From positions 1 through 31,802 of the forward strand of contig JBDRKP010000012.1 in NCBI GenBank assembly GCA_043813875.1: a stretch of 31,802 nt of DNA, in the 5' to 3' direction. A program made the position numbers and the translations under genes. This document shows positions 19,442 through 30,757 of the stretch, in pieces (positions within the stretch are counted from its first letter, which is position 1; the number at the start of each line of letters is the position of its first letter). The DNA comes from an archaeon. GTDB taxonomy: Archaea; EX4484-52; B79-G9. The notes under the pieces were generated by a model. The model was not told where the DNA came from. It worked only from the letters and a program-made list of their open reading frames with translations, and ran no database searches.

Positions 19442-19563
19442 GTCGAGGTCGCCTAGCTCGGTATGGCGCCGGTCTTGAATCATAGAAGCGAAAAAACAAA
19501 GCGCTTCTATCCATGCAAACCGGTGTCCGCAAGGACTCGGGAGTTCAAATCTCTCCCTCGACG
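19442..19563 (+). tRNA. tRNA-Ser(UGA) with a 38-nt intron at 37/38 (19480-19517)
   Basis: Acceptor GTCGAGG/CCTCGAC plus discriminator G; anticodon stem CCGGT/ACCGG; TGA at 19476-19478; long variable arm. The intron has a 9-bp stem ATAGAAGCG/CGCTTCTAT. Confidence 0.93.
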
Positions 19564-22445: not shown

Positions 22446-22554
22446 GCAGGGGTACCCGAGCTGGCCAAAGGGGCAGGACTTAAGATTCAAAAAACAATCC
22501 ATAAGATATCCTGTAGACGCAGGTCTTACGAGGGTTCGAATCCCTTCCCCTGCA
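22446..22554 (+). tRNA. tRNA-Leu(UAA) with a 23-nt intron at 37/38 (22485-22507)
   Basis: Acceptor GCAGGGG/CCCCTGC plus A; stem CAGGA/TCCTG; TAA at 22481-22483; BHB helix CTTA/TAAG with two 3-nt bulges. Confidence 0.95.
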
Positions 22555-24896: not shown

Positions 24897-26365
<1,469 letters not shown>

Positions 26366-26483: not shown

Positions 26484-26598
26484 GGGCTCTTAGTTCAGTT
26501 GGTAGAACGCTGCCCTTGCATCTACAGCTTTGCTGGAGACACAGCAAAATCGTTTGCAAGTGAGGCAGAGGCCGCGCGTTCGAATCGCGCAGAGTCCA
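26484..26598 (+). tRNA. tRNA-Ala(UGC) in the 16S-23S spacer, with a 42-nt intron at 37/38 (26521-26562)
   Basis: Acceptor GGGCTCT/AGAGTCC with G3:U70; TGC at 26517-26519; BHB helix CTTG/CAAG. Confidence 0.95.
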
Positions 26599-26715: not shown

Positions 26716-26750
26716 CATAGGTTTGGAATAAGGATTTTGCACATATACGC
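26716..26750 (+). other. 5' arm of the 23S processing stem with bulge-helix-bulge (partner 29658-29692)
   Basis: CATAGGTTTGGAA/TTCCAAACCTATG, helix TAAG/CTTG, bulges GAT and TAA, TTTGCACATATACGC/GCGTATATGTGCGAA. Confidence 0.9.
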
Positions 26751-29657
26751 ATTAAGCCATATAATGGATGACTTGGCTCAAGAGCCGATGAAGGGCGTGA
26801 CAAGCTGCGATAAGCTGTGGGGAGACGCAAGTGGTCTTCGATCCACAGATCCCTGAATAGGTTATCTCATCAACTCGATGGCTCCTAACAGAGCGGGAAC
26901 GCGGGGAATCGAATCATCCAAGTACCCGCAGGAAAAGAAAGCAATTGCGATACCGCTAGTAAAGTCGATCGAAAACGGTACAGGTCAATCCGAATCTTTA
27001 ACAGTAATGTTATAGAGATGTAGATTTCGCTTCAGACATTACCTCCTTTAATTTGAAAAGAATTCCTCTGGAAAGTGGAACTAGAAAGGGTGATAGTCCC
27101 GTATTTTAAAAATTAAAGGAACTAGTCTGACAGCAGAGTAGCTTAGGTTGGAAATCCTGAGTGAATTTGGGAGACAGTAGCTCCTAAACCTAAATACTCC
27201 TTGAGTCCGATAGCGTATTAGTACGGTGACGGAAAGTTGAAAAGTATCCGTAATAGGAAGTGAAAAGAGTCTGAAATTATATGGTCAAAGTAAGGTACGG
27301 CATCAAAGGATAGGGATTCGTCCCTGACCAGTGTCGTATCATGCGTTTCGAAAAAAGAGGTAGGGAGTATATCTAAGTGGCAAGGTTAACTGCTAAAAGC
27401 AGGAAGCCGTAGGGAAACCAATCGCCCGCAGCATCGCGAGGGGCATTGTATTAAACTGCATTTAGTCACTTGGATATTACCTGAACCCGTTCGATCTAAT
27501 CCTGGGCAGGATGAAGTGTGGCGAAAGCTGCATGGAGGTCCGAATCCGGTTGTGGATCACCTTCGGGTGACTTGGGATTAGGGGTGAAAAGCCAATCGAG
27601 AACGGTAATAGCAGGTTCCTTTCGAAATGAGCCGCAGCTCAGCCTGGAGCGAGGAAGATAACGATGTAGAGCTACTGATTAGGTATTTTGGGGGAGAAAT
27701 CCCTCGGTATCTTGTCAAACTCCGAAATCGTAATCACTGTAGACCTCCGGAGTGAGTGCTGTGGGGTAAGCCCATAGTACTAGAGGGGAACAACCCTGGC
27801 GAAAGTTAAGGTCCCAAAGTATTTGCTAAGTGTAATTAGAAGATTGTCCTATACCATAGACAATAGGGAGGTAGGCTCAGAAGCAGCCATCCTTTAAAGA
27901 AAGCGTAACAGCTCACCTATCTAGGTCTAAGGCGTCGTAAATGGACGGGGCTCAAGCAGATCACCGACACTTTCGGGCATTTGCGCAAGCGAATGATTCA
28001 GTAGAAAGGTATCGAGTTAGGGCAGAAGCAGGGCTGTGAGGTCCTGTGGACCTTATTCGACAAAGAATCCTACCGGTAGTAATAGTAAATAGTTAGGTGA
28101 GACTCCTAATGGCTGTAAGGGCAAGGTTTTCCCAGCAATGTTCGTCAACTGGGAGTTAGTCGGTCCTAACCAATCCCCTAACTGGGTGTTTGGGAAAGGG
28201 AAAGAGGTAAATACTCCTCTACTATAAAAATACACGCGGCAACGCAAGCTTAACTTCTGACACTTCGGAATAGGCTGACACGACTCATCAGTCGTGCCAA
28301 GCATATAACTCCATGGAGAACCGTAATGGTGAGAAATGGAAGAAATTGCGAATGGCTTTCCGTATGGAGAGTTCAGTCAATTTCTGGAGTTGATAAAAAA
28401 GGAGCTAAGACGGATTTTTTATAACCGTACCAAGAACCATCACTGGTGCCCTAGGTGAAAAGCCTAATGTGTTTCGGGAATAATCCAGCTTAAGGAACTC
28501 GGCAAACTAGCCCTGTACCTTTGGTAGAAAGGGTGTCCATTGCTCTGCACTCGTTGTAGATGCAGTGGATCACAGTAACGAGGGAAATCCGACTGTTTAA
28601 CAAAAACGTAACTGGCTGCTAGTCCGTAAGGATGTGTACAGCTGGTGACTCTTGCCCAGTGCCAGTATCTCAAACTTCGGTTCAACGGAGCTAAGGACTG
28701 GTAAACGGCGGTCGTAACTATGACGATCTTAAGGTAGCGTAATCCCTTGCCGATTAATTGTCGGCCCGCATCAATAGAGTAACGAGATTTCCGCTGTCTC
28801 AAGCTGGAACCCGGTGAACCCACTGTTTTGGTGCAAAGTCCAAAGACTTCCAACGGGAAGCGAAGACCCCGTGGAGCTTCACTGCAATCTGTAGTTGCGG
28901 TATGAGTCTAGATATATAGCGTAGGTAGTAGACTTCGATGCTGAGTCGCAAGGTTCAGCTGAGTCAACAATGTAACACTACCTTTCTAGAAACATGCTGC
29001 TTACCCTTTCAGGGGACACCTGCAGACGGGCAGTTTGGCTGGGGCGGCACACCCCTAAAAATTTATCAGGGGTGCCCAATGGTATCCTCAGACGGGACAG
29101 AAATCCGTCGTAGAGTGTAAAAGCAAAAGGATGCCTGACAGGATTTTGAAAAGCGAGAAATCCTGCCACGAAAGTGTGGTTTAGCGAACCCATGAAGCCT
29201 CCTATTGAGGCCCATGGATGACAGAAAAGCTACCCCGGGGATAACTGAGTTGTCACGAGCGAGAGTCCATATCGACCTCGTGGCTTGCTACTTCGCTGTC
29301 GGCTCTTCTCATCCTGGCTGTGCACAAGCAGCCAAGGGTGGGGGTGTTCACCCATTAAAGAGGATCGTGAGCTGGGTTCAGAACGGCGCGAGCCAGTTTG
29401 GTTGCTATCTGTTGGAAGTGTCTGTATCTGAGGGGAAGGCACGGAGAGTACGAAAGGAACACCGTGCCGTGGCCTCTAGTGAACCAGTGGTCTGACAAGG
29501 CTTCTGGATAGCCACGCCATAATCGATAAGAGCTGAAAGCATCTAAGCTCGAAGTGTACCCCAAAAAGAGATATTCGGACTCCTGTAAAAGACAGGTTTG
29601 ATAGACTCCGGATGTAAGCTTGGTAACAAGTTAAGTCCAGGAGCACTAATCGTCCTA
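26751..29657 (+). rRNA. rrl: 23S rRNA (ends approximate)
   Basis: GCCGATGAAGG near the 5' end, GTPase centre, H69 GTAACTATGAC, GCGAAGACCCC, GGGGATAAC, A-loop, sarcin-ricin loop, GCTGAAAGCATCTAAG. Confidence 0.97.
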
Positions 29658-29692
29658 GCGTATATGTGCGAACTTGTAATTCCAAACCTATG

Positions 29693-29705: not shown

Positions 29706-29723
29706 GAGAATCAAATAATGCTC

Positions 29724-30083
29724 ATTGGAGTGGAAGTTAGCTACCGGCCAATATATAAAAACAACATCTTCTGGTAACACAGAAGCTATTGCAAGATATT
29801 TATTGGCTGAGGAAAGTCCCCCCTCCCGGAATCCTAGCGATTCCGCGAACCATCAGAAGATGGAAGCCGAGAGGCTTGGCAATGCATCAGAAACGATACC
29901 AGCCGCAACCAAAGATGACGATAACTTCAGATGTTATTGCGGATCTGGATGAAACGGGCATCCTTTTAGGAGCAAGCGGTTAACCGCGCTCAGTCGAATG
30001 CTAACAGCCTTTTACCAGAAACAGTTAATACTTACTGTTTTGATGACAGAAGCAACAAAAGGGGGCTTACTCTCCACACCAAT
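29724..30083 (+). ncRNA. rnpB: RNase P RNA
   Basis: CR-I GAGGAAAGTCC at 29809-29819; CAGAAAC and TGAAAC in L11/12; CR-V AACAAAAGGGGGCTTAC at 30054-30070; P1 ATTGGAGTGGA/TCCACACCAAT; P2 GTTAGC/GCTAAC. Confidence 0.92.
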
Positions 30084-30386: not shown

Positions 30387-30463
30387 GGACTCGTAGCTCA
30401 GCTGGATAGAGCACTAGGCTTCTAACCTAGGGGTCGGGGGTTCGAATCCCCCCGGGTTCGCCA
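30387..30463 (+). tRNA. tRNA-Arg(UCU), no intron, CCA encoded
   Basis: GGACTCG/CGGGTTC-G-CCA; CTAGG/CCTAG stem; TCT at 30421-30423; TTCGAAT T-loop. Confidence 0.96.
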
Positions 30464-30508
30464 CAAACACCAGTAACTAATTAAAATAAAGTGACAAATA
30501 CTCAATCA

Positions 30509-30602
30509 CTCCGGCGATGATTCCAAGATCGTCACCCGATGCACTGGGCGAACTGAACCTCCCCGAAAGCAAATGAGGACGTGAACACCCAATGAGCCGG
30601 AG
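30509..30602 (+). ncRNA. Box C/D 2'-O-methylation guide sRNA with three antisense elements to 23S rRNA
   Basis: 7-bp terminal stem CTCCGGC/GCCGGAG; C ATGATTC with D ATGA; D' CCGA and CTGA; C' ATGAGGA. Guides are complementary to 28721-28730, 28652-28662 and 29342-29351. Confidence 0.85.
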
Positions 30603-30705
30603 ACTAATTCTTCCGACCAAAATAAAAACCTTTCCCCACAATAAACACACGTGATTAAACAAAGCGACCTGTGACCTAAACCAAAACAGTACAAACAGCA
30701 CAATT

Positions 30706-30757
30706 GTGCGCTTGAACGAAGTGAAACGCACTTGATGATCAACCTTTCATAAGGTTG
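30706..30757 (+). repeat. Dispersed double-hairpin repeat (homolog of 19752-19803)
   Basis: 43/52 identity, with three compensatory base-pair changes. Confidence 0.85.

Follow-up and report, generated by a model that had tools for sequence, protein, structure and literature searches.

The 94-nt element at positions 30509-30602 (+) of the window, by which we mean the whole 31,802-nt stretch of archaeal DNA analyzed here, is, on comparative evidence, a real and conserved gene for a lineage-wide two-guide box C/D sRNA. We put the probability at about 85% that this sRNA directs two predicted methylations of 23S rRNA, Cm1920 and Um2552, and that its internal C'/D' K-turn is closed by a hairpin; a docking role for the loop of this hairpin is a more tentative proposal. 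The RNA is of an ordinary kind, and its U-A K-turns, its hairpin-closed internal K-turn and its invariant loop are modestly new features. For uncultivated archaea with small genomes and apparently without the protein-only enzymes, the sRNA offers a predicted route to the conserved ribosome modifications Um2552 and Cm1920. It also represents a nearly lineage-wide sRNA family that escapes current Rfam models.

Genomic setting and anatomy of the element

The window comes from an assembly of 1.64 Mb (91.5% complete) and holds an archaeal rRNA operon, with 16S rRNA at 24897-26365 and 23S rRNA at 26740-29668. The spot directly after the 23S gene is a common position for the 5S gene; here it is taken by the RNase P RNA, and no 5S rRNA was detected within the window. 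Three Rfam tRNA matches of 109-122 nt that were not called by ARAGORN (19442-19563, 22446-22554 and 26484-26598) are probably intron-containing tRNAs, the last of them situated in the 16S-23S spacer. A tRNA-Arg(UCU) gene lies directly upstream of the sRNA in this genome and in all four of the other g1 loci examined.

Archaeal C/D sRNAs are recognized by a box C of the form RUGAUGA, a box D of the form CUGA, a K-turn with tandem G.A pairs and a terminal stem. About 12 nt separate box C from D' and box C' from D, and the guides pair over about 8-12 nt with rRNA or tRNA, covering the fifth nucleotide upstream of box D or D'. The D'-C' loop is usually 3-9 nt long. The element and its surroundings are laid out as follows.

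29726-30081: RNase P RNA (153.5 bits), 58 nt past the 23S 3' end
30387-30463: tRNA-Arg(UCU); the element begins 46 nt downstream
30481-30488 (+): TATA-like element TTAAAATA, some 28 nt 5' of the terminal stem; putative promoter of the sRNA's own
30509-30515 (+): terminal stem, 5' strand CUCCGGC, pairs with 30596-30602
30517-30523 (+): box C, variant AUGAUUC; its UGAU core is invariant in alignment A1
30524-30535 (+): D' guide, 12 nt; 30525-30534 pairs with 23S 28721-28730
30536-30539 (+): box D', CCGA, at a fixed 12 nt from box C; covaries with box C'
30540-30572 (+): inserted D'-C' hairpin (basal stem 30540-30542/30569-30571, upper stem 30545-30551/30560-30565, loop 30552-30559 in the MFE fold)
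30553-30559 (+): loop heptamer CUGAACC, invariant in the long form; proposed extra base-pairing element
30573-30579 (+): box C', AUGAGGA, 12 nt before box D
30580-30591 (+): D guide, 12 nt; 30581-30590 pairs with 23S 29342-29351
30592-30595 (+): box D, variant AUGA; its UGA core is invariant in alignment A1
30596-30602 (+): terminal stem, 3' strand GCCGGAG, pairs with 30509-30515
28721-28730 (+): 23S target of the D' guide, E. coli 1917-1926, 3' strand of H69; predicted Cm at C28724 (C1920)
29342-29351 (+): 23S target of the D guide, E. coli 2549-2558, H92 A-loop; predicted Um at U29345 (U2552)
29375-29381 (+): 23S GGUUCAG, proposed loop partner, E. coli G2582-G2588, exact complement of CUGAACC

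All coordinates, letters and complementarities given in the initial annotation agree with the window sequence, including its description of a GC-rich 94-nt island: the element has 57% G+C, compared with 32-47% in the spacers on either side (60-nt windows). The terminal stem has 7 bp and the two guide spacers measure exactly 12 nt each (30524-30535 and 30580-30591).

The thermodynamic fold alone is unremarkable, with a z-score of -1.35 and 20 of 200 shuffles folding equally well. Support for the RNA comes from the comparison with relatives and not from folding energy. Upstream of box C, a TATA-like hexamer begins 30-38 nt before the box in 21 of 28 homologous loci, and no other 12-nt bin upstream holds one in more than six loci. 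From this positioning we infer that the TATA-like element is a putative promoter of the sRNA.

A search against Rfam, which had been proposed earlier, matched no family at the gathering threshold; the best score was that of sR3 (RF01133; 13.5 bits compared with a threshold of 41, E = 0.66), and relaxing the cut-off to E ≤ 10 gave no usable family for the element. In two groundwater metatranscriptome runs, RNA contigs match the RNase P RNA with zero differences (29723-30082 and 29724-30076) and none falls on 30500-30601. This coverage says little about expression of the sRNA, because only contigs were available, the RNA is small, and the DNA contigs of two runs also leave 30500-30601 uncovered.

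Distribution and covariation across the order

We searched 42 species genomes of 0.5-2.2 Mb from the order, which is the whole phylum in the collection searched. BLAST retrieved full-length relatives at 85-90% identity within the genus and 71-76% within the family. A covariance model (R1), built from 13 sequences of the long form, which carries the inserted hairpin, found the sRNA in 38 of the 42 genomes at E ≤ 1; 36 of them remain when the limit is set at E ≤ 2.6e-5. Its match in the genome under study covers exactly 30509-30602 (100.1 bits), and the four genomes with no match are 68-87% complete. Independently of the model, the D-guide word followed by box D is present in 27 of the 42 genomes, with 0 control hits. 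Homologues are 63-95 nt long, with short forms of 63-70 nt in other families.

The sRNA occurs once per genome except in G006, which has two identical copies (G006:C7:8865-8958 and G006:C90:4166-4259), each with an upstream tRNA-Arg. Either a duplication of the locus or the presence of two strains in the bin could account for this.

To assess the proposed structure, we aligned 36 copies (32 distinct) to the model. In this alignment (A2), which is fitted to the structure, 84.3% of the cells are paired, compared with 26-48% when the partners are slid; in an independent MAFFT alignment (A1) the values are 85.0% and 34-47%, and such slide and shuffle controls overstate the support because kin are not independent. 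Among the 32 distinct homologues in the model-based alignment, 18 of 21 pairs are altered on both sides. The three inner pairs of the terminal stem are formed in 100% of the distinct homologues with both sides varying, and in alignment A1 one plainly sees double changes for the inner part of this stem, for the two K-turn pairs and for the stem of the hairpin.

The unusual boxes follow the same pattern. Position 6 of box C and position 1 of box D form U-A in 29 of the 32 distinct homologues and G-C in two (the remaining one is neither), the G-C pairs belonging to genus g5 with the canonical boxes AUGAUG and CUGA. These counts bear out the earlier suggestion of a K-turn made from co-varied boxes with U-A replacing G-C. 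They also make the U-A boxes a trait of the whole lineage, and the covariation means that the deviation of boxes C and D from consensus is compensated. The lineage thus supplies a natural case of covariation at the K-turn 4b:4n position, with U-A instead of G-C. At the internal motif, position 1 of box D' pairs with position 6 of box C' in all 31 scorable rows (C-G in 22, A-U in nine), and position 2 of D' pairs with position 5 of C' in 16 of 31 (U-A, C-G or wobble). Because the CCGA at 30536, 12 nt past box C, is the box that covaries with C', we take it to be the D' box in use.

Identification as a box C/D sRNA is thus upheld by agreement among the boxes, the 12-nt spacing, the 10-nt guides, the covariation and the core proteins described below. 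A crude scan of the whole genome produced seven candidates for double-guide sRNAs, and only the present one has complementarity of at least 10 nt to rRNA on both guides. A half-mer scan for further sRNAs in the genome gave 161 matches, compared with 171 and 124 in two controls, and thus no excess.

Predicted targets of the two guides

Each guide forms 10 Watson-Crick pairs, a stretch that includes the nucleotide five positions upstream of its box. Runs of at least 10 Watson-Crick pairs over that position were reached by 28 of 2000 shuffles of the first guide and 17 of 2000 shuffles of the second. As only about 1% of the shuffles reach such complementarity, both guides are better than chance. 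We aligned the 23S rRNA with rrlH of E. coli K-12 (C28724 = C1920, U29345 = U2552, C28655 = C1836), and this numbering agrees with the assignment of the two outer guides, as perfect 10-nt complements, to C1920 and U2552 in the initial annotation.

The A-loop guide is found in all 36 secure copies (9-10 nt), and its target decamer is identical in the 17 of 17 genomes where this part of the 23S rRNA was recovered. Genera g1-g6, g9 and g11 and one of the two g10 genomes keep the H69 guide; in g8, g12, g13 and G022 an unrelated A/U-rich sequence takes its place. A search for covariation between guides and targets, as had been advised, detected it at E. coli position 1922. There the guide and target read U:A in the genome under study (G000), G009, G018 and G038, C:G in G028, and U.G in G017 and G024. 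All seven genomes with both sides known are therefore pairable, and one shows a full compensatory change.

Three 23S genes of the order, G028:C160 (loci L055/L039), G026:C16 (L051/L041) and G031:C19 (L054/L037), carry insertions of 730-790 nt at about E. coli 1923/1924, presumably introns. The insertion site falls inside the H69 stretch that is paired by the D' guide, and two of the three genomes are from g8, a genus in which the sRNA no longer carries the H69 guide. Another 23S insertion, of 367 nt, lies in G022:C36 (L040/L050) at the equivalent of window position 29270/29271.

Protein machinery and proposed mechanism

The three core proteins whose presence the initial annotation had asked about are all encoded in the genome under study: fibrillarin (288 bits) and Nop5 (186 bits) are neighbors on contig 23, and L7Ae (101 bits) is on contig 7. 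The Nop5 gene (L056:1105-2631, G000 contig 23) encodes 508 aa with the NOP domain at residues 133-341. Its C-terminal tail of about 165 residues is basic and of low complexity; it contains three repeats, each about 30 residues long, ends in a lysine/arginine run and resembles the charged tails seen in eukaryotic Nop56/58. Nop5 and fibrillarin are separated by an ORF that has a Bro-N domain.

TlyA is the stand-alone enzyme that makes Cm1920. The suspected loss of rlmE and tlyA is matched by our searches, which detected no convincing FtsJ-family gene, and hence no RlmE/TlyA-like enzyme, in the 42 genomes. For the genome under study, the highest FtsJ-family score (24.4 bits) belongs to a NOL1/NOP2/Sun m5C methyltransferase, and the best over the 42 genomes is a partial match of 35 bits covering half of the model; all 14 control genomes scored above the cut-off. 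This result fits RNA-guided formation of Um2552 and Cm1920.

In the mechanism that we propose, the sRNA would be transcribed and would assemble with L7Ae, Nop5 and fibrillarin. The terminal stem and boxes C and D would build a K-turn in which U-A replaces G-C next to the tandem G.A pairs, and boxes D' and C' would form a second protein-binding motif, made into a true K-turn by the 33-nt hairpin that closes it. The D' guide on 23S 1917-1926 would place C1920 of H69 five nucleotides from box D', and the D guide on 2549-2558 would place U2552 of the A-loop five nucleotides from box D. Fibrillarin would then make Cm1920 and Um2552, replacing the TlyA and RlmE that the genome appears to lack. The CUGAACC loop might in addition pair with G2582-G2588 and so dock the particle beside the stable H92 hairpin.

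Alternative readings of the locus and of the D'-C' linker

That the locus holds no RNA gene, being either a spacer that is G+C-rich by chance or a segment of one of the mechanical minus-strand ORFs that overlap it (84 and 78 aa; window 30477-30742), is barely credible. It could draw on the overlap with these ORFs, on a fold energy that is not significant by itself and on the blank in the RNA contigs, which the DNA contigs share; it would leave unexplained the near-universal single copy (38 of the 42 genomes), the base-pair covariation and the invariant letters of boxes and guides. Homologue lengths moreover vary by non-multiples of three, which makes the antisense ORFs unlikely genes. A very improbable reading, too, is the three-guide sRNA of the initial annotation, in which the single box C' alternates among three D' boxes (CCGA 30536, CUGA 30553 and CCGA 30563) and 30541-30551 either directs C1836 methylation or serves to open the H68/H69 junction. 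As a fact of sequence, the pairing on which it was built is correct: 30541-30551 matches 23S 28652-28662 over 11 nt with one G-U. The duplex is predicted at -21.8 kcal/mol, the layout is colinear with the D' guide, a CUGA comes after the stretch, and the 23S site is conserved over the order. However, Watson-Crick/G-U runs of 11 nt between the 33-nt linker and the 16S plus 23S rRNAs (4.4 kb) were reached by 25 of 100 linker shuffles. Among the 13 long-form sequences, the match falls to 9 nt in the closest relative (G001), and the remaining 11 have runs of 4-7 nt in different registers; the stretch covaries instead with its intramolecular partner, as one strand of the hairpin. The additional D' boxes fare no better, since C' covaries with the first D' box and is unpaired with it in no scorable row. 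CUGA 30553 is part of the loop of the hairpin and sits 29 nt, not 12, from box C; CCGA 30563 belongs to the 3' strand of the stem, which varies, and is not conserved. Because the match does not exceed chance and disappears in relatives, the stem covaries, and D' and C' covary with each other, we reject both the three-guide and the switching models.

No third antisense element at guide distance from a C-type box is kept in the 13 long-form sequences. An ordinary two-guide sRNA with a long spacer had been foreseen in case the middle element proved not to be conserved; the antisense sequence is indeed not conserved, but conservation does extend to the structure of the spacer, and its loop is invariant.

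A hairpin with an invariant loop closes the internal motif

In the long form of the sRNA, the 16-34 nt between D' and C' (33 nt in the genome under study) fold as a hairpin. Eight of its 11 pairs change on both sides in alignment A2, with stem variants such as GGGA/UCCC, CGGC/GCCG and CAGGG/CCCUG. The base of the hairpin closes directly on D' and C', which argues that the internal C'/D' motif is a K-turn and not the usual K-loop.

The loop heptamer CUGAACC is unpaired in the MFE folds of 13 of 14 sequences and invariant in every long-form copy. A pattern search found it in 15 of the 42 genomes with 0 control hits, a count that is circular by itself as the pattern contains the heptamer; a model search with no fixed loop recovered these 15 genomes again and, within their families, no long form whose loop differed. 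The long form occurs in 13 of the 16 genomes of family f1, including the one under study, and in both genomes of f8. Other families have a linker of 2-8 nt or hairpins with different loops. In a tree of 23S fragments, f1, f8, f6 and f4 form a clade (99/100) with no resolved branching inside, and a single gain or repeated loss of the hairpin may each account for its history, both being compatible with the tree.

The rRNAs contain just two exact complements of the heptamer, at 28952 and 29375. The second is the GGUUCAG that corresponds to G2582-G2588, which we take to be unpaired nucleotides of the peptidyl-transferase ring. This site is colinear with the A-loop duplex, 23 nt to its 3' side, and 21 nt separate the two elements in the sRNA. 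In a test framed after the match had been seen, 118 of 20,000 random heptamers matched two colinear zones of 60 nt. The pairing would comprise 7 bp with a predicted energy of -8.9 kcal/mol. GGUUCAG is present in 14 of the 17 genomes where this part of the 23S rRNA is visible, and its presence carries little information because the target is so conserved. One of the deviating genomes, G022, reads GGUUCAA with the loop unchanged, which leaves 6 bp. Among the three genomes having both sides, there is no compensatory change between loop and target. G022 also keeps the hairpin despite its lost H69 guide, which ties the hairpin to the A-loop half of the sRNA.

From these data we suggest, tentatively, that the CUGAACC loop pairs with 23S G2582-G2588 in the manner of the extra base-pairing known from eukaryotes; this appears likelier than any other single role. 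The main rival is a protein contact or a purely structural role. We give about even odds to the broader view that the RNA is an ordinary two-guide sRNA whose hairpin merely closes the C'/D' K-turn and whose loop is kept for a protein contact (for example with Nop5), for RNA stability or for processing. Lineages that share the A-loop guide carry hairpins bearing unrelated loops (g6, g12 and g13) or short linkers (g4, g5, g8 and g11), and the lack of covariation between loop and target, including the unchanged loop of G022 beside a differing 23S rRNA, points the same way; the basic repeat tail of Nop5 is an unusual feature that could provide a partner. What this view does not explain is why exactly seven letters of the loop are unchanged in two families whose stems differ, nor why the sole colinear exact complement in the rRNAs falls 23 nt from the A-loop duplex. 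Pairing of the loop elsewhere is quite unlikely. The candidates would be GGUUCA at 28679-28684 in the H68 region, colinear with the D' guide, AGGUUCAG at 28951-28958 (about E. coli 2147-2154), or a tRNA. Both 23S sites offer complements of 6-8 nt in the genome under study, but G009 (g3) has the same loop with neither site, and the persistence of the hairpin in G022, where the D' guide no longer matches H69, does not suit a partner beside that guide.

If the loop does pair with G2582-G2588, accessory pairing by methylation guides would predate or parallel its eukaryotic invention. A somewhat more doubtful extension is that the hairpin tip acts as a third rRNA-binding element, one sRNP holding H69 (domain IV) and, in domain V, the A-loop and G2582-G2588 of nascent 23S rRNA at once, as both guide and folding tether of the catalytic core. 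With such a third contact, the sRNA may be the principal or even the sole client on whose account these reduced genomes retain fibrillarin, Nop5 and L7Ae.

Comparison with known modification systems

Passages of PMC6009581 describe the standard archaeal C/D sRNA as about 50-70 nt long, with a K-turn and a K-loop and a short D'-C' loop. The element departs from this standard (33-nt linker, 94 nt), and its relatives of 63-70 nt conform to it. Guides for Um2552 have already been predicted in archaea: sR25 of Pyrococcus abyssi is cited as one in PMC2584109, and a passage of PMC4644070 reports predicted A-loop U2552 guides in five of the species analyzed. As far as these passages describe such guides, they and the present sRNA are the same kind of RNA, use the same enzyme system and address the same A-loop nucleotide. 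The present sRNA differs from what is described there in its AUGAUU/AUGA boxes (not RUGAUGA/CUGA), in having no Rfam match, in its partner guide to C1920, and in its 33-nt hairpin linker and total of 94 nt compared with about 50-70 nt.

Outside the archaea, yeast snR52 and the stand-alone enzyme RlmE act on Um2552 (passage in PMC2584109). The positions modified by snR52, RlmE and TlyA are the same as those predicted here, and the difference from RlmE and TlyA is that the present system would be RNA-guided and not protein-only. For H69, the same source places a Gm at E. coli 1909 in Haloarcula 23S rRNA and not a Cm at the C1920 equivalent.

The closest parallel to the proposed loop pairing is found in yeast (van Nues et al. 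2011, PMC3116282): there, conserved elements between D' and C', among them the loop of the snR70 stem, form base pairs next to the target and increase methylation as much as five-fold. As described there, snR70 resembles the present sRNA in that a D'-C' stem closes the internal motif and carries a conserved loop with complementarity to rRNA in the vicinity of the methylation site, which for the present sRNA is a predicted one; in both cases the loop is not beside a D-type box and its complementarity falls within 4-11 bp. The present sRNA differs in being archaeal, in its symmetric 12-nt spacers, and in a proposed partner that is 23 nt away from the guide duplex instead of immediately adjacent. 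A limited literature search found no report of extra base-pairing by an archaeal sRNA.

Finally, we scanned the whole collection for the pattern. The matches listed, which do not describe a distribution, were mostly chance bacterial ones, known copies from the order and one sRNA labelled as Methanosarcinales. The latter records (L114 and L201) hold a canonical C/D sRNA candidate (GAUGAUGA ... CUGA) with a different D' guide. Because they carry the A-loop guide word GUGAACACCC, the U2552 guide is not restricted to the lineage studied here.
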